From: a virus
Lineage: Duplodnaviria; Heunggongvirae; Uroviricota; Caudoviricetes
Length of the DNA: 6,188 bases
Reading direction: 5' to 3' (one strand)
IMG/VR virus record: IMGVR_UViG_2537561709_000010
Shown: positions 1 through 6,188 of the stretch, piece by piece
Layout: each line of letters begins with the position of its first letter
How positions within the stretch are numbered: position 1 is the first letter of the stretch
The notes under the pieces: generated by a model
Told to the model about the DNA's origin: nothing
The model's input: the letters and a program-made list of their open reading frames with translations, nothing else
Database searches by the model: none
Position numbers and translations under genes: made by a program

Positions 1-261
1 GACCGCATCGACCGTCAGCGAAGGCGCACCGGCAAAGGTAGCGGCTATAGGCAACACCGTACCGTCATCCGGCATGTGGCACTCAATACGGATTTTCACT
101 GGCATAGCCAGGCCGATATCCAGCATGGAGCCTTTGATGATTCGGGCGACGTTATCACGGTATGCCTGCCCTTCTGCGCTGATGTGCGTGCGCCCGCGAT
201 TATGCCGGTAGTAGCGATTATTGCTCGGAGGCCAGGGTAATGTGATGCTGTAGGTATTCAC
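1..261 (-). CDS. rusA: RusA-like Holliday junction resolvase, N-terminal part (3' end beyond window); diverges from canonical RusA after about residue 66
   Basis: Hand translation of the reverse complement from GTG at 261..259: [87 protein letters not shown], open to the window edge. The first ~66 residues match RusA as I recall it. The GTG start overlaps the ybcO stop (GTGA). Not in the ORF track because it has no stop in the window. Confidence 0.6.
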
Positions 262-548
262 GCCTTAATAACCCCCTCTTTCAGCCAGATAACCTGTGTT
301 CTCGCCATACCTTCCAGCGCGCATTCTTTTGCATATGCAGCATCGACAAAATGTGTGCGGCGGTCGATTTCGTCGTGGCAGGCAGAACATGCAATGGTGG
401 CAATCAAGTCTGGCGGTTTGGTACCGGTGCCGCACAATCCAGTCAGCCGGATATGTGCCAGTACAGACGTTTCAGGGTTGCCATTACATACGCCAGGGAT
501 TCTTACTTGGCATTCCCGACTACGCGCTGCTTTTCTCAAATCAGCCAT
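258..548 (-). CDS. ybcO: YbcO, DUF1364 family putative zinc-dependent nuclease (96 aa)
   Basis: Track ORF 258..587; from the internal Met the protein reads [62 protein letters not shown]..., matching DLP12 YbcO. I place the start at ATG 548..546 because a perfect AGGAGG lies 5 nt upstream on the coding strand (reverse complement of 551-558), whereas the track start at 587 is a TTG. Stop TGA at 260..258. Confidence 0.85.
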
Positions 549-711
549 GATTCCTCCTTGCTGCCAGTCGCAACCATTTTTTATCAACCAGGCTGGCGGT
601 ATATCCGAGCAGTGTTGGTATTTCGGATGGCTTCAGCTCAGGCTTACGCTTACGACGATTTGATACTCTGTAGATGTGTCCGTTCATGACACGAATAAGC
701 GGTGTAGCCAT
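541..711 (-). CDS. ninE: NinE (56 aa)
   Basis: Not in the ORF track (too short). Hand translation from ATG 711..709: [56 protein letters not shown], stop TGA 543..541, matching NinE of lambda/DLP12. The start shares one nucleotide with the ybcN stop (TAATG) and the 3' end overlaps the ybcO start (ATGGCTGA). Confidence 0.8.
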   Translation of the reverse strand: MATPLIRVMNGHIYRVSNRRKRKPELKPSEIPTLLGYTASLVDKKWLRLAARRNHG

Positions 712-1166
712 TACGCCTCCTGCTTGTCACGCAGCAGCTGGAACTCGCAGCTCTGCGGAATAGTCAGGTGGCAGCCAATATTCATCGCCCAGGCTTCAAC
801 CTTACACAGGAAGACATACATCTCTCCGGTATCAAGATCGGAGGTATGGCGTAACGACTGGATAGTGGTGATATCACCGGTTACGACATCAACCAGGTCT
901 TTGGTTTCATAACCGAGATATGTGTGTTTGAGAGCATCTTTTACCCAAGCTGGAGTGGCGAACGTTTTACCCCTGCTGATGAGGTATTCACTGATTTCGC
1001 TGTACCACATGTGGCTGAGTGCATTCTGGGAAAGACTGCGTTTCTCACGCCACGGTTTAAGCACCATGCGAAAGCATTTGCCCTCCTCCAGATAAGGCTG
1101 GATCTGCCGACCGATAGCGGTGAAGTTGCCGCGATGTAATTTGATGCCGTCTTGTGAGAGGTTCAC
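711..1166 (-). CDS. ybcN: YbcN, lambdoid nin-region protein reported as a DNA base-flipping protein (151 aa)
   Basis: Track ORF 711..1166: [32 protein letters not shown]... matches DLP12 YbcN as I recall it. The start codon is GTG (reverse complement of 1164-1166) with GGAGGTGA 3 nt upstream. Stop TAA at 713..711. Confidence 0.88.
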
Positions 1167-1264
1167 GCTTCACCTCCGCAGAGGTCAAACGCTAGATGCA
1201 AAGAATTGCAGGTGCATTTCTGCATCTGTGAAGGGAGAAGAGAGTTTGGATTGTATGTGCGCAT
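1163..1264 (-). CDS. ylcH: Small ORF (33 aa), likely YlcH-like
   Basis: Hand translation from ATG 1264..1262: [33 protein letters not shown], stop TGA 1165..1163 overlapping the ybcN GTG start (GTGA). Position and length agree with the 33-aa ylcH between ybcM and ybcN in DLP12; I cannot recall the reference sequence to confirm. Only a weak SD (GGGGA). Confidence 0.45.
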
Positions 1265-1287
1265 AAACGTCCCCGTTTAGCGCAGAA

Positions 1288-1316
1288 GTCACCGGAGTTG
1301 TTCAGGCTCCGGTGAC
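1288..1316 (-). terminator. Perfect 10-bp inverted repeat (GTCACCGGAG / CTCCGGTGAC, 9-nt loop); candidate terminator or regulatory hairpin downstream of ybcM
   Basis: Seen directly: 1288-1297 gtcaccggag, 1307-1316 ctccggtgac. It lies about 65 nt downstream of the ybcM stop and upstream of ylcH. On the minus-strand transcript the stem is followed by UUCUGCGC, which is not a clean U-tract, so terminator function is uncertain. Confidence 0.3.
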
Positions 1317-1380
1317 ATAATTATGCCGTGTTGATTTCCCAAAATCAAAATCGATAGAATTGCTCCTTCTTAAAACACTT

Positions 1381-2178
1381 TTACTCTCTGGAAGCTTTTC
1401 TTATCTCTCTTGGTGTTATATTAAAACGATTATGAAATCTTTCAGTAAAACGCGAAGGACACTTATAACCATTTTCTCTGGCAATCTCGCTTATAGGTTT
1501 TACCGTCGTTTGTATAGCAGACAACGCATTATTTAACCTCACATCGTCCAGTATACTTTGGAAACTTACCCCCTCGCTTGCTAGACGGCGATGTAATGTA
1601 GAAACAGAAATGTAGAGATATCGAGCAACCTTGTTTGCTGTCCATTTTGTGCCGGGTTCGGATAGCAGCAGGTTATAACAACGACTTATCAATGATTGTT
1701 TACTATATGATAAAAGTAAATGATTAACATGATTCACTCCTAACGAAAGTAGAACGCCCATTGCTAAGTGCTCCTGAATTTTAGTTGAGAAGCCTCGGGA
1801 AACAGATGTTTTTAGTTGCTCCCAACAATATATTAACTCAGGATTCTGAGGTAAAAAGAAACTTGTTTTGTTACGTATTTGATCAGTTACCGTATAAAGC
1901 TTTTGGAAACTCTCAATTAAATCAATGGGTAAGTAAAGCATTTCTGCAAGATAAAGCCCTGCTTCAGGATAATTCTCAATATAAAATTCATAACCACAAG
2001 GAAATAATATTATTTGATTATTATCAACAGTTAAAGTATGCGTCTCCCAATTGATAACTTTCTTTCCCTGACGGATACGACACAAAGCTGGCATAAGAGG
2101 CTTAACCCTATGAATCTCATGATGTTTATGCATCCGTATTTCTTCGATCTTTAAGTTAGTCTTACCTCTTGCCAGCAT
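1381..2178 (-). CDS. ybcM: AraC/XylS-family transcriptional regulator YbcM (265 aa)
   Basis: Track ORF 1381..2178. C-terminal helix-turn-helix region typical of AraC family (…[42 protein letters not shown]…[33 protein letters not shown]). ATG at 2178..2176, only 9 nt after the ybcL stop (TAG at 2190..2188). Confidence 0.88.
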
Positions 2179-2187
2179 ACTCTCACC

Positions 2188-2739
2188 CTACTTTATCTCA
2201 TAAACTGGTGTTATCTCAGCGGTTGCGATTTTATTAGCATTAAGCATATAACCAACTAACGCTCCGCTGGAGTTAGAATCTACAGGAATCTTTTCAGTTT
2301 TTAGAGCCCATACTTTAAACTGGTAATGATGTGGTTTATCTCCTTTAGGAGGACATGCGCCACCAAACCCAGCATAGCCAAAATCATTTCGGCCTTGAAC
2401 AGCACCAGTCGGCAGTTTTGTTCCATCACGTCTCCCTGCATCAACGGGCAAATATGTTACTGTTGCTGGAATATTAACAACAGTCCAATGCCACCAACCA
2501 CTGCCTGTAGGTGCATCTGGATCATATACAGTTACGGCAAAGCTTTTGGTACCTTCAGGAACACCAGACCAGGTTAATGAGGGCGATGTATTACCACCTT
2601 CACACCCAAATCCAGAAAAGACATGAGACGTTGTAAGTTGCTCTCCTGTTTTTATTTCATTACTAGCGACCTGAAATGCTGCAGCCTGCGCAGAAAATGT
2701 TATGAATGCCAATACAGTTGAAACGATAAGTGTTTTCAT
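2188..2739 (-). CDS. ybcL: YbcL, PEBP/RKIP (UPF0098) family protein with N-terminal signal peptide (183 aa)
   Basis: Track ORF 2188..2739. N-terminus MKTLIVSTVLAFITFSAQAAAFQ is a typical Sec signal peptide with an AQA-A cleavage motif. The rest matches DLP12 YbcL as I recall it. SD AGAGG lies 5 nt upstream of ATG 2739..2737. Confidence 0.88.
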   Translation of the reverse strand: MKTLIVSTVLAFITFSAQAAAFQVASNEIKTGEQLTTSHVFSGFGCEGGNTSPSLTWSGVPEGTKSFAVTVYDPDAPTGSGWWHWTVVNIPATVTYLPVDAGRRDGTKLPTGAVQGRNDFGYAGFGGACPPKGDKPHHYQFKVWALKTEKIPVDSNSSGALVGYMLNANKIATAEITPVYEIK

Positions 2740-2955
2740 AAAAACCTCTTTGTTATGACCTATCGTTATTTTATTTGATATTCCTTTATCTCATTATGCA
2801 TAAAGGCGCAATGTTCATGCAAAAGCAATCACAATTGTACCCCCAACCCAATTATTTGCCACAATATACACAAAGCACATTGATACTATCTAAAAACTCT
2901 GCTTTATTATTAGTAATACCTACGAAAGTCGGTGTTATTTTTTAACCTACCATTC

Positions 2956-3005
2956 AAAATACGTGACATACACCATTTTGCTCATAATAATTTGTCACGT
3001 ATTTT
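2956..3005. repeat. 50-bp dyad element: perfect 13-bp inverted arms (AAAATACGTGACA / TGTCACGTATTTT) around a 24-bp spacer
   Basis: Seen directly: 2956-2968 aaaatacgtgaca and 2993-3005 tgtcacgtatttt are exact reverse complements. Each arm carries an A4/T4 tract on its outer side, the arrangement of a bidirectional intrinsic terminator, but the spacer is long for a loop. About 200 bp downstream of the ybcK stop and 215 bp upstream of the ybcL start. Confidence 0.4.
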
Positions 3006-3203
3006 CAGTATTTGAATCTGCGACCAAGAGTTCTCACCTAACAAATGATTAAGATTGTATAGCTCATTTACTACCCCAATACAGCCGTACAAAACTCGCT
3101 TGTGGGAGCAAACAAAGTAATTACCCATTAAGTTTCGTTAAAGATAATTAATTCTGTCTTGCACTTTATCATCATAGCATAACTTAAAATCCGAGATCAT
3201 TAT

Positions 3204-4731
3204 TTAGAAATAAATCTCACCATCAACCATATATTTGAGAGCACTTATCGCCTGCTGGGCAGATATTACTTTCATTAAAGGATAGTGTTTAAAAACAATG
3301 CCATTCATAAAATAGATATCACAGGTTTTATTATCCGTATTAATTATGATTTTTTCGAATGTTTTATAGGCAAGTGTACGGCATAACTCTCGTCCATTTT
3401 TACTGGTTAAGTCAATAGCATAAAAATCACTGAATGAATTTACACCTTTACTCTTCAAAGTTTTCAATGATACCGAAGCCCTTCGTAATTCCTTATCTAA
3501 TAGTCTTATTTTCTCTGCTATAGCGGTAACTTCAGGCGCGACAGACAATGCAACGATTAAATTATTAATTTTCATCTGAAGCTCAATAATTTTTAACTCT
3601 AAAGTTTCATTAGCATCTTTCTTGTTTTCAACTGGTTGAATTTTGCTACAATTAAAAAGCAATTCATTAATGATATTATAATCAACCAAATCTCTCTTTA
3701 TTGATGGCCTGTCACATCGATGTAATCTTCTCATCGGACAAACATAATAGCCATGCAAACTTCCAGATACCGCATGAACAATCATGGTATTACCACAAGC
3801 CTCACACTTCATAACTGTTCGAAGTAGATTTATTAGCATAGGATTCTTGCTACTATTGCTAATACCAAAAGGTGCCAACCGAATTTCCTGTACAGCGTAA
3901 AACAAATCATCTGATATGACTCTGGGATAATAGCCAGCGATTTCACTTATCCCTTTCCCTCTTGCACGATATGAAGGTACGCATATACCTATCAGAGCTT
4001 TATTCGCTAATAATTTTTCAATTACAGAAGGCCCCCATGCACTTTTCTTTTCCTGAGAAATTCTTTACAGCATGATCATTTAAATACTTGGCTATTGCAT
4101 TCAATGAGCGCCTTTCCATCCTGAGTTTAAAAATTAGCTCAATAGTTTTCACCCTGTCGGGGTCTGGAACAAAAGCCGTTCTTTTGTCATCTAAGGAGAG
4201 CCATCTCGGACAAGACGCCGTCATAATCGTACCTGATTCCAGTGCATCCTGCCGTTTTTTCTTCCATGATAATTTAACCCGACTTGACTTTATCTCGCTT
4301 TCTTCATTTGCCCTTTGTGCTATAAGTATGGCTTTTATTAATGAATATGGCTCATTCAAAGAGTCAATATTATAGACTGTATTGTCGCAAAGAGTTATAA
4401 CATCAATACCGTGATTCAAAATCAATTTCAGACGTTCAATCGCTTCACCGACTTTTTCTCTTGAAAGTCTGTCCAGACTTTCAACTAACAATGTAGTTCC
4501 TGGCAATATATAACCATGCTCTATAGCATCTAAAAATTCCGAAAAAGCTCCTGATTGTGCATGCTTTCCTTTGAATGCACTTAATCCTAAATCTTCATAT
4601 GTTATGGTATCAAGATAATAATCACTATTTACCTTTAACCATTCAGCAATAAGTCTTCTCTGTCGGTTTAATGAGTCGCCAGACATCTGACCTGGTGATG
4701 AAAATCGCATATATGCTATGGCTTTTTTCAT
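3204..4731 (-). pseudogene. ybcK: Large serine recombinase (ybcK-like), interrupted by a +1 frameshift in this sequence
   Basis: Two same-strand ORFs: 4018..4731 carries the resolvase catalytic domain (YMRFSSPGQ with the presumed catalytic Ser; ESLDRLSR motif), and 3204..3905 carries a zinc-ribbon (CEACGNTM…HGYYVCPMRRLHRC) and coiled-coil region. The downstream frame stays open upstream to 4067, so both frames are open across 4018-4067. Total span is 1528 nt (3x509+1), consistent with a 508-aa protein carrying one extra nucleotide. Confidence 0.7.
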
Positions 4732-4975
4732 GGTGACACCTGCTAACTTATGCTTTTATAAACCTTAGTGGTGAGATATAATTTTTGTTTAATTTTTATT
4801 TAAAAAGACAATTACGATCACACTATCTTGAATATACAACAATAATCGTATTGCAATTTGCTTACGCAATAATCTTGAAGGCACAAAAGAATACACAAAA
4901 ACTAAAAACATTAACAAAAGCGGCCCATGTAAAGATATGAACCGCCATATTGCAGTCTTTTAAAAGAAATTATTT

Positions 4976-5308
4976 TTAATGTGGTGTGCTTCGTGACAAT
5001 AAATTAATAACCAACACACCGGCACAAATCAACATCATGCCTATAACGGCTGGCAGGTCCAGCCGTTGGCCGAAAAACCCCCATGATAGTAAGCTAATCA
5101 GGACAATACCGACTCCTGACCAGATAGCATAAGCAATCCCTGTAGGAATATAAGCCAGCGTCTGAGCTAATAACCAGAATGATGCACAATAACAAATAAT
5201 TGTACCAACAGATGGCCATAACCGTGTAAAACCTTCTGAAAACTTCATTAAGGTTGTACCAATGACCTCTGCAAGTATTGCACCACCAAGATAAATATAA
5301 GGGTTCAT
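4976..5308 (-). CDS. emrE: EmrE, small multidrug resistance (SMR) family efflux transporter (110 aa)
   Basis: Track ORF 4976..5362; from the internal ATG 5308..5306 the protein reads MNPYIYLGGAILAEVIGTTLMKFSEGFTRLWPSVGTIICYCASFWLLAQTLAYIPTGIAYAIWSGVGIVLISLLSWGFFGQRLDLPAVIGMMLICAGVLVINLLSRSTPH, matching EmrE including the conserved membrane-embedded Glu (KFSEGF). The 18 extra N-terminal codons in the track are not part of the known protein. Confidence 0.9.
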   Translation of the reverse strand: MNPYIYLGGAILAEVIGTTLMKFSEGFTRLWPSVGTIICYCASFWLLAQTLAYIPTGIAYAIWSGVGIVLISLLSWGFFGQRLDLPAVIGMMLICAGVLVINLLSRSTPH

Positions 5309-5323
5309 AACATATTCTTTCCT

Positions 5324-5358
5324 GTTCAAACTGGAGAGAATTGTACTACAGTTTGAAC
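5324..5358 (-). promoter_or_regulatory. Perfect 10-bp inverted repeat (GTTCAAACTG / CAGTTTGAAC, 15-nt loop) in the ren–emrE spacer, just upstream of the emrE ribosome-binding site
   Basis: Seen directly: 5324-5333 gttcaaactg, 5349-5358 cagtttgaac. On the minus-strand transcript the hairpin is followed directly by AGGAAAG and, about 10 nt on, the emrE ATG (5308). No U-tract follows, so it is not a canonical intrinsic terminator. Confidence 0.3.
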
Positions 5359-5375
5359 TCAACTCACCTGTTTCA

Positions 5376-5678
5376 TCATTGTGTACCCATTGATGTTCTT
5401 TTATATACCCTCAATACCCGTTTCATCGCGGCACTCTGGCGACACTCCTTAAAAATCAGATTCGTGCTCACCTTTCCTTCCCGTTCTTCTCTGGTAGCGA
5501 ACCGGTAATACACCGTTCGCCAGACCTTACCATCAACGACCAGGATTCCTGCCCGCGCCATTTTAGCCGCAGCCTGATTTATGCTGGTTACGGTTGCGCC
5601 TGTTACCGCGGCAACGTCCTGTGCACAGAAGCTCTTATGCGTCCCCAGGTAATGAATAATTGCCTCTTTGCCCGTCAT
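5376..5678 (-). CDS. ren: Ren protein, lambda ren homolog (100 aa)
   Basis: Track ORF 5376..5678: MTGKEAIIHYLGTHKSFCAQDVAAVTGATVTSINQAAAKMARAGILVVDGKVWRTVYYRFATREEREGKVSTNLIFKECRQSAAMKRVL… is near-identical to lambda Ren over about 90 residues, with a different C-terminal tail. ATG at 5678..5676 overlaps the P stop (ATGA). Confidence 0.85.
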   Translation of the reverse strand: MTGKEAIIHYLGTHKSFCAQDVAAVTGATVTSINQAAAKMARAGILVVDGKVWRTVYYRFATREEREGKVSTNLIFKECRQSAAMKRVLRVYKRTSMGTQ

Positions 5679-6188
5679 ACACTTGCTCCTTTCAGTCCGA
5701 ACTTAGCTTTAATTTCTGCGATCTTCGCCAGAGCCTGTGCACGATTTAGAGGTCTACCGCCCATAACAGGAAGTTGTTTTACTGGTTCAGGTATCGTCTC
5801 ACCACGGTTAATTCGCGCTGTCATACAGGTCAGTTCATCGGCAGCCTTGCGCCGTAATTCCGCGTCAGTCAGCGCATTGGCCCGCATGTTCTGGTACAAG
5901 TTGGTAACCAACCAGTAATGCGCGTTCGATTTCCACGGATAAGACTCTGCATCCGGATACAGGCCACGCTTCCGGCAATACTCGTAAACCATATCAACCA
6001 GCTCGCTGACGTTTGGCAGTCCGGCGATAACGGATGCTTCTTCCCGGCACCATGCAACAAACTGCCCGGGTGATGGCAGGAATGGTCGATTCTGCCGACG
6101 GGCTACGCGCATTCCTGCGTTAACCTGTTCCATTGTGGTGATCCCGTTTTCCCGGAAAGCCAGAACCCACTGGCGGCGGATTTCGTTC
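5675..6188 (-). CDS. P: Replication protein P, lambda P homolog, C-terminal part (5' end beyond window)
   Basis: Track ORF 5675..6133 (MEQVNAGMRVARRQNRPFLPSPGQFVAWCREEAS…KAKFGLKGASV) matches the C-terminal ~150 aa of lambda P. The frame stays open upstream to the window edge; hand translation of 6134-6187 gives NEIRRQWVLAFRENGITT, which also matches lambda P. Stop TGA at 5677..5675. Confidence 0.85.
   Translation of the reverse strand, partial: NEIRRQWVLAFRENGITTMEQVNAGMRVARRQNRPFLPSPGQFVAWCREEASVIAGLPNVSELVDMVYEYCRKRGLYPDAESYPWKSNAHYWLVTNLYQNMRANALTDAELRRKAADELTCMTARINRGETIPEPVKQLPVMGGRPLNRAQALAKIAEIKAKFGLKGASV

Follow-up and report, generated by a model that had tools for sequence, protein, structure and literature searches.

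The sequence analysed here, referred to as the window, is the whole 6,188-nt stretch of the Caudoviricetes record IMGVR_UViG_2537561709_000010 (IMG/VR), the central part of which, from position ~1350 to ~5402-5411, is an AT-rich block containing the genes ybcM, ybcL, ybcK and emrE. With a probability of roughly 85 %, this block represents a composite accessory (moron) island, occupying the variable slot that separates ren from the nin genes of a DLP12/lambda-type prophage. At least three modules, each with its own history, make up this mosaic, which is not the product of one insertion. Judging from its sequence, the window is a DLP12-type lambdoid region in reverse-complement orientation, with all of its genes encoded on the minus strand. 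The feature is already known as the DLP12 accessory region, for which genes, promoters, silencing and phenotypes have been published, and EmrE has been called a moron of the phage Perceval of Escherichia coli LF82 in print.

The preliminary description placed an AT-rich block at positions 1265-4975, between phage genes of balanced GC content, and this is borne out by exact counts of 36.3 % GC for this interval versus 51.7 % for positions 1-1264 and 48.5 % for positions 4976-6188. The sliding-window profile that had been proposed as a check (200 nt) is non-uniform, with GC values of 0.47-0.59 up to ~1300, 0.29-0.47 over 1300-5400 and 0.49-0.55 beyond, and thus with shifts near 1300 and 5400. 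An unsupervised maximum-likelihood fit distinguished two change-points, one at 1316 (support 1295-1343) and the other at 5416 (support 5401-5462), and raised the log-likelihood by 73, while the block as defined by homology (1350-5402) has 36.5 % GC versus 51.6 % for the backbone (z = -11.3). The same split is observed at the third codon position, where the GC content (GC3) is 0.26-0.35 for ybcM, ybcL, ybcK and emrE and 0.46-0.61 for ybcO, ninE, ybcN, ren and P. Overall values per gene are 0.365 for ybcM, 0.519 for ybcO, 0.505 for ren and 0.531 for P. The hand counts given earlier for two 60-nt lines proved exact (0.567 at 5821-5880; 0.233 at 3301-3360), and emrE is indeed intermediate (0.417 overall; 0.35-0.52 in its 60-nt lines), as is ybcL (0.426).

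The junctions of the block were mapped by aligning the window to PhiR5_1, PhiR26_1, PhiR30_1, STS63, Perceval, MA11, K12a and ev243, which share its flanks, an alignment to lambdoid phages lacking the block having been suggested previously. Towards the nin genes, the homology stops at 1348-1350 in all eight of these loci, giving a junction at 1349/1350. On the ren side, homology is picked up again at 5403-5412, within the last ~10 codons of ren, where base-level alignment reveals a Ren C-terminus ending in RVLRVYKRTSMGTQ (RVL/RVYKRTSMGTQ) in the window versus RVL/AVYGVKR in ev243. These junctions coincide with the GC change-points, and the AT-rich block therefore includes emrE, which had been placed beside it. 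Of the interval proposed earlier, the AT-richness thus stands but the limits do not, as it starts ~85 bp too early and the ends lie at ~1350 and ~5403-5412. The final sequence common to all cargo types (the window, PhiR70_1, Perceval, MA11, K12a and STS63) is a boundary element, which consists of a promoter-like site (TTGATT-17-CATAAT; 1348-1320) followed by a hairpin with a 10-bp stem (1316-1288; -18.3 kcal/mol, z = -5.0). The target-site duplications for which a search had been proposed were not found at the block junctions, nor were terminal direct or inverted repeats observed at 1350 and 5402 or flanking the modules. An inverted repeat around emrE (4948-4968/5396-5416; 21 nt, 71 % complementary) was dismissed as a chance occurrence in AT-rich DNA.

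The whole block is present in only 3/168 matching phage records, and the same two flanks enclose other cargo, or no cargo at all, elsewhere. The block is thus accessory and not a core part of these phages, as had been proposed, and its placement between the replication (P, ren) and nin (ylcH, ybcN, ninE, ybcO, rusA) modules was likewise correctly recognised. The slot is occupied by Rha and small open reading frames (ORFs) in PhiR5_1, PD-lambda-1 and Rha in PhiR26_1, an acyltransferase and a lipoprotein in PhiR30_1, and two small hypothetical genes in STS63, while the slot of ev243 contains no gene, but a 73-bp spacer with a GC-rich, terminator-like hairpin followed by a T-run. emrE is missing from the phages with other slot contents (PhiR5_1, PhiR26_1, PhiR30_1 and ev243). 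In the match summary rows alone (H10 and H11), a YajG-family lipoprotein and a DUF4041 protein are named for matches with the same two-flank pattern. The lambda RefSeq record shows ren, a 73-bp spacer and ninB, and the spacer has the same position as the block, just after ren and ahead of the first nin gene. No ninA is annotated in that record, contrary to the earlier statement that lambda carries this gene here; the name ninA is presumably that of a P22 gene. The hairpin in the ren-ninB spacer of ev243 and lambda we take to be tR2.

The complete phage genomes which contain the whole block between ren and ybcN, PhiR70_1, PhiR68_2 and PhiR34_1 (PV340577, PV340576 and PV340559), share 98.4-98.6 % identity with the window over positions 67-6188, but differ from it in having an intact ybcK (508 aa) and no katE junction. 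The DLP12 prophage of K-12 (renD-emrE-ylcJ-ybcK-ybcL-ybcM-ylcH-ybcN-ninE-ybcO-rusA) has the same genes in the same order and orientation (98.6 % identity over 67-5986). While DLP12 has an IS3 element within ren and a truncated P, ren is intact in the window and P continues to the window end. Conversely, ybcK, ylcJ and rusA are intact in DLP12 and are frameshifted, start-less and fused to katE, respectively, in the window. Perceval, 4A7, 1W, 3W and Lambda_4C10 share the ren-emrE-ylcJ-ybcK module and the nin flank with the window, but in the Perceval type an alpha/beta hydrolase gene on the opposite strand and a rha/P22AR fragment are found in place of orf48-ybcL-ybcM. A 2025 paper on lambdoid phages in Genome Research (PMC12315714) makes no mention of emrE, ybcK or these phages.

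The features of the window are the following, with the basis of each given in brackets.

1..71, minus strand: interior fragment of katE (catalase HPII), outside the block (100 % match to katE of E. coli EC2641 and others)
67..261, minus strand: rusA, 5' 65 codons only, cut by the katE junction (aligned to rusA of PhiR70_1, L001 2833-3195)
258..548, minus strand: ybcO, nin-module backbone (Pfam YbcO, 140.6 bits)
541..711, minus strand: ninE, backbone (ORF; annotated NinE in PhiR70_1 and K-12)
711..1166, minus strand: ybcN, NinB-like, first large gene of the nin module (NCBIfam PRK09741, 278 bits; PHROG 72 NinB/Orf)
1163..1264, minus strand: ylcH-like ORF of 33 codons, backbone (annotated as hypothetical at the corresponding position of K-12 W3110, MA11 and K12a)
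1288..1348, minus strand: boundary element of the nin module, promoter-like site and hairpin (promoter scan; fold; conservation)
1349..1350, no strand: nin-side junction of the variable block (end of BLAST homology; GC change-point 1316)
1381..2178, minus strand: ybcM, AraC-family regulator, second gene of the ybcLM operon (Pfam HTH_18, 61.5 bits)
2188..2739, minus strand: ybcL, periplasmic PEBP/RKIP-like protein (NCBIfam PRK09818, 399 bits, cut-off 277; Pfam PBP, 144.5 bits)
2834..2862, minus strand: ybcLM sigma-70 promoter, GTGGCA-17-TACAAT (promoter scan; K-12 listing, PMC3946193)
2956..3005, no strand: perfect 13-nt inverted repeat with a 24-nt spacer (repeat search; fold z = -4.0)
2982..3128, minus strand: orf48, ORF of 48 codons, at the start of the divergence of the ybcLM-type slot (ORF; hypothetical in PhiR70_1)
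3130..3203, minus strand: downstream tail of ybcK, ~70 nt (alignment of ybcK downstream regions; BLAST breakpoints 3134 and 3195)
3204..4731, minus strand: ybcK, large serine recombinase, a pseudogene here (domain hits on the intact allele; frameshift mapped)
4793..4821, minus strand: promoter-like GTGATC-17-TAAAAA upstream of ybcK (differs at one base from its K-12 counterpart)
4789..4917, minus strand: small ylcJ-like ORF, ATG start lost (Pfam YlcJ, 68.7 bits; alignment with K-12, PhiR70_1 and Perceval)
4919..4946, minus strand: intrinsic terminator of emrE, 10-bp stem and TTTTGTT (-15.5 kcal/mol, z = -4.0)
4976..5308, minus strand: emrE, small multidrug resistance (SMR) type multidrug/paraquat efflux pump (NCBIfam SMR_efflux_EmrE, 240 bits, cut-off 226)
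5376..5678, minus strand: ren, backbone except for its 3' tail (PHROG 142 Ren-like exclusion protein)
5403..5412, no strand: ren-side junction of the variable block (homology resumes; base-level alignment; GC change-point 5416)
5675..6188, minus strand: replication gene P, 3' part, running off the window end (annotated P in PhiR70_1 and Perceval)

The profile searches agree with the gene identities proposed previously, namely a drug efflux pump, a serine recombinase, a PEBP-family protein and an AraC regulator. The EmrE-specific NCBIfam match covers residues 1-110 of 110, and the protein belongs to PHROG 1395, which has the category 'moron'. The intact ybcK allele of PhiR70_1 encodes the Resolvase (69 bits), Recombinase (54 bits) and Zn_ribbon_recom (33 bits) domains, and YbcK also matches PHROG 95 (integrase) and contains the N-terminal R-x-S-S-x-x-Q catalytic motif. 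The YbcL N-terminus, MKTLIVSTVLAFITFSAQA/AAF, resembles a signal peptide by eye, and YbcL has been described as periplasmic (PMC4810123). No match was found for orf48 in the Pfam and PHROG searches, and no non-coding RNA was detected in the window by Rfam (gathering thresholds) or ARAGORN.

At least three modules would make up the island. These include emrE with its own intrinsic terminator (module a), ylcJ and ybcK with the ~70-nt tail (module b), and orf48 with the ybcLM operon, which would have its own sigma-70 promoter and be autoregulated by YbcM (module c). The sub-modules are found apart, with emrE-ylcJ-ybcK present without ybcLM in Perceval and 4A7-type phages, and emrE-ybcLM present without ybcK at the chromosomal fliE locus, and the earlier view of the block as one moron does not stand up to this distribution. 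Among 80 IMG/VR loci encoding YbcK, ybcK follows emrE in 80/80. The ~70-nt tail of ybcK is common to all ybcK-carrying phages, though diverged, and the variable slot which starts beyond it, ~70 nt past the ybcK stop, measures 324-3190 bp with at least eight length variants among these loci. The segment 2895-3133 is found only in the ybcLM-type arrangement. The variants of this downstream slot represent two independent junction types, with orf48-ybcLM in one and a 3' rha/P22AR fragment (86 % identity to the rha gene of PhiR5_1) in the other, and the MA11 slot type is a deletion derivative of the rha-fragment (Perceval/K12a) type. For this reason a single shared crossover point past ybcK, for which breakpoints at +66 and +75 nt had been considered, was rejected. 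The BLAST breakpoint at 3195 was similarly discarded as a junction, being an artefact of allele divergence.

Recombination between phages appears to account for this arrangement. MA11 shares 99.6 % identity with the window on the ren side and 95.3 % on the nin side, and PhiR26_1 contains a second copy of window positions 1196-1349 within its cargo (L005 4564-4718; 80 % identity), as if cassettes stack together with their own flank copy. The second flank copy and the difference in identity between the two sides of MA11 argue for ordinary homologous and illegitimate recombination between lambdoid genomes. The ybcK genes of MA11 (L008) and K12a (L009) are furthermore of the window type until ~9 bp before the stop and of the Perceval type after it, an allele switch which, on alignment evidence, indicates probable recombination within or at the end of ybcK. 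The island may thus have been assembled and exchanged through lambdoid mosaicism, with homologous recombination in the body of ren and in the promoter/hairpin element before ylcH-ybcN. Occasional illegitimate joins would have been added to this, with no single transposition origin.

Parts of the cargo have also been retained in the absence of phage genes. Between yedK and fliE, as observed in ATCC 25922 (L003 4634-8154) and AZ161 (L011), a remnant is present which comprises a phage-type porin gene, ybcM, ybcL and emrE, with no ybcK and no phage genes. It corresponds to window positions 1164-2894 joined via 4 bp to 4968-5385 (~90 % identity), and keeps the ylcH region and the ybcLM promoter, with homology extending to 2894. 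The remnant is derived from a lambdoid prophage, since it retains 186 bp of phage backbone (window 1164-1349). This comparison is compatible with an insertion as well as a deletion of 2895-4967, and the junction shares only TAAAA/AA in AT-rich DNA. Genome counts were determined across 5,426 complete E. coli genomes, where emrE is found in 3,693, ybcLM in 3,258 and ybcK in 1,424, and 668 genomes match at least 80 % of the window. The identity of ybcLM is bimodal, with 667 genomes at 99 % or above, 2,590 at 90-95 % and one between, and these identity bands suggest that the fliE-locus remnant occurs in about 2,590/5,426 genomes. Cargo that has outlived every phage gene would constitute the strongest support for host benefit.

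The island appears to carry transcription signals of its own. Pairing in the stem of the emrE terminator (4946-4919) is maintained in K-12 and Perceval, where the bases differ but compensate for each other, and the hexamers and spacing of the ybcLM promoter (GTGGCA-17-TACAAT) are identical to those of a K-12 promoter determined by SELEX. This K-12 promoter lies in the ybcK-ybcL spacer and is described as constitutive, RpoD-dependent and H-NS bound, and the K-12 ybcK promoter, GTGACC-17-TAAAAA, is likewise listed with H-NS (PMC3946193). The ybcK leader (untranslated region) of K-12 contains a Rho/NusG-dependent terminator (PMC4150792) and ybcK DNA is a binding site of Hfq-polyphosphate (PMC10954037). 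On the basis of the literature on K-12 and LF82, the cargo would be dispensable for phage growth and transcribed from its own signals in the lysogen, while its expression would be damped by H-NS, Rho/NusG and Hfq-polyphosphate silencing of AT-rich DNA. The occurrence of complete phage genomes without the block suggests that the island may be dispensable for both lytic growth and lysogeny.

Ratios of non-synonymous to synonymous substitution (dN/dS) of 0.13 for ybcM, 0.10 for ybcL, 0.07-0.08 for ybcK (intact alleles) and 0.01-0.11 for emrE show purifying selection on each of the four. The products are likely to serve the host, EmrE through cation/paraquat efflux, YbcM through survival of oxidative stress and YbcL through modulation of neutrophil migration in uropathogenic strains. 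YbcM of K-12 binds upstream of ybcLM as determined by ChIP-exo, and its deletion cuts survival of H2O2 exposure 8-fold (PMC8464067). YbcL of uropathogenic strains suppresses neutrophil migration (PMC4810123), amplification of emrE leads to paraquat tolerance (bioRxiv 10.1101/2022.12.20.521246), and DMEM medium induces EmrE, described as a moron of Perceval (PMC9928086). The host-benefit reading of the preliminary description fits with the purifying selection, the cargo-only fliE remnants and these published phenotypes. It is less obvious for the serine recombinase, which had been counted among the host-benefit cargo, and ybcK is a frameshifted pseudogene in the window. The YbcL precursors of the window, PhiR70_1 and ATCC 25922 all have T at position 78; this residue is said to underlie a functional difference between uropathogenic E. 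coli (UPEC) and K-12, on which no claim is made here.

Several points weigh against the interpretation of the block as a composite island of host-serving cargo. No donor lineage was identified for the AT-rich genes, and AT-richness alone is no proof of recent foreign origin. The promoter scan showed no promoter-like site upstream of emrE, the expression of which in lysogens is taken from literature on other strains, and the evidence for expression, silencing and phenotypes was in all cases obtained with K-12, UTI89 or LF82 and not with this genome. The purifying selection on ybcK is not accounted for by a model of host cargo. Finally, the comparison with the fliE-locus remnant fits either order of events, with ybcK inserted into, or lost from, an emrE-ybcLM ancestor.

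Morons, a concept of Hendrix and Juhala, include bor and lom of lambda and gp15 of HK97. The island resembles such lambdoid morons in its patchy presence at one position and deviant composition and, probably, in having a promoter and terminator of its own and benefiting the lysogen. However, a lambdoid moron is a single promoter-gene-terminator unit, while the island is a stack of units, including a recombinase, and the end of ren has been rewritten.

The island appears to be decaying in this genome, with the ybcK frameshift, the loss of the ylcJ start and the truncation of the neighbouring rusA by a katE fragment. In ybcK, one additional T (T3 to T4, ~4040-4043), relative to PhiR70_1 and K-12, splits the gene into ORFs at 4018-4731 and 3204-3905, so that the three serine recombinase domains of the intact PhiR70_1 allele are encoded in a broken reading frame in the window copy. 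This additional T could represent either a genuine pseudogene or a homopolymer sequencing error. A 10-nt deletion just past the emrE terminator (window 4917-4946) removes the ATG of ylcJ. The katE-rusA junction has a 5-bp overlap (67-71) and lies in the interior of both genes, both of which are truncated. This junction is absent from all 5,426 complete E. coli genomes, and an exact-match scan of the GTDB species representatives gave no hit; it may reflect either a real rearrangement or an assembly artefact (chimera).

The recombinase itself suggests another explanation, in which an element of ~2.1-2.2 kb (2895-4967 or emrE-ylcJ-ybcK) was integrated site-specifically by YbcK, or adjacent DNA was captured and swapped in an integron-like manner. 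Large serine recombinases include the integrases of phages and mobile elements, such as phiC31, Bxb1, A118, SpoIVCA and TnpX. YbcK shares the three-domain architecture and catalytic motif of phiC31/Bxb1-type integrases, but in contrast to these it is not located at a prophage end in E. coli, and the phage has a separate tyrosine Int/Xis. Since Perceval encodes its own tyrosine Int/Xis, YbcK is not the phage integrase, and its redundancy in this role, together with the purifying selection on ybcK, would be consistent with another function in mobility. Furthermore, the variable slot opens only ~70 nt past the ybcK stop, and exactly 2895-4967 is missing from the fliE-locus remnant, where the flanking parts meet in a clean 4-bp join. 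However, the junction of the remnant shares only TAAAA/AA, ybcK has the same place after emrE in every viral locus compared, and only two independent junction types exist downstream, the MA11 type being derived. The truncated rha/P22AR gene, without its 5' half across the module, resembles a replacement rather than an insertion. No conserved att-like site, imperfect palindrome or repeated site was found flanking the modules, no repeated recombination site as in an integron-like cassette array was observed, with the downstream junctions being of two types, one of which comprises the truncated rha, and no evidence was found for independent movement of ybcK within E. coli. The perfect 13-nt dyad (AAAATACGTGACA / TGTCACGTATTTT; 2956-3005), which lies between ybcK and ybcL, overlaps the end of orf48 and is not followed by a T-run, is missing in phages with other slot contents; it was considered as an att site and rejected, since it is missing in the Perceval, MA11 and K12a types with intact ybcK.

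Relatives of YbcK (42-61 % identity) are found in Atlantibacter, Yersinia, Erwinia, Ewingella, Pantoea and metagenome-derived contigs, where they recur in two phage hot spots, namely the ren-nin region (L020, L109 and L124) and the region past the tail-fibre genes at prophage ends, in one case 540 bp from ssrA. This recurrence is in favour of YbcK-driven mobility, as is a finding made in both L020 and L124, where part of an adjacent phage gene is present as a diverged second copy, which abuts the region upstream of the recombinase and ends 150-300 bp before its start. In both of these unrelated lambdoid prophages, a complete copy of the phage gene lies on one side of the YbcK-like gene and the diverged, incomplete one on the other. 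The repeated part comprises the first 60 codons of DUF1367 in L020 (6623-6851 and 9609-9831; 82 % nucleotide and 97 % amino acid identity) and P residues 77-224 in L124 (9253-9693 and 12170-12751). The partial copies are, however, equally compatible with recombinase-mediated events and with single unequal crossovers, and one such illegitimate exchange between two phages would suffice to produce them. In L109 (Atlantibacter sp. RC6), a 687-aa ORF (7818-9881) which is DNA methyltransferase-like by eye precedes the YbcK-like gene instead of emrE, and KGG and DinI genes occur after the recombinase gene, as in L020. On balance, YbcK-driven movement is an unlikely explanation for the block, and assembly by recombination among lambdoid phages is preferred.

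A role of the island, or part of it, as an anti-phage or superinfection-exclusion module was also considered. The slot of PhiR26_1 is occupied by PD-lambda-1, a SIR2-domain gene is found in this region of the related lambdoid locus L020, the neighbouring ren is annotated as an exclusion gene, and prophage hot spots are known to hold defence genes (PMC9122126). However, eight proteins yielded no matches against PADLOC-DB 2.0 (E ≤ 0.01), EmrE, YbcL and YbcM have documented non-defence phenotypes, and the cargo persists at the fliE locus of about 2,590 genomes without any phage genes, which fits a general host benefit. A defence function is thus very improbable. The arrival of all four genes in one event, as a single moron or transposon-like unit, is the least credible explanation and already contradicted by the distribution of the sub-modules. 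In its favour, the composition is uniform enough for a one-segment fit, the block is intact at 98.4-98.6 % in three phages, and 668 E. coli genomes match at least 80 % of the window. Against it, terminal repeats, whether direct or inverted, are lacking at 1350 or 5402, ybcLM falls into two deep lineages, and on the ren side the junction has exchanged the end of a phage gene instead of falling in intergenic DNA.

The descriptive additions made here to the published DLP12 accessory region are the base-level junctions, at 1349/1350 and at 5403-5412 inside ren, and the recognition that the island is built of stacked modules, each exchanged independently, at a site which holds defence genes elsewhere. 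Roughly half of the complete E. coli genomes carry the cargo only beside fliE, which represents a clean example of cargo outliving the phage. The only part which could become interesting is YbcK, a conserved and unexplained recombinase. It is conceivable, though doubtful, that recombinases of the YbcK family are dedicated residents of two classical cargo hot spots, the ren-nin region and the tail-fibre end, in temperate phages of the Enterobacterales, lambdoid phages included. There they would capture neighbouring cargo DNA or swap it, or would themselves be mobile as minimal units of a recombinase and its cargo. If this were true, there would be an enzyme-driven route for the assembly of phage moron islands, besides general recombination.

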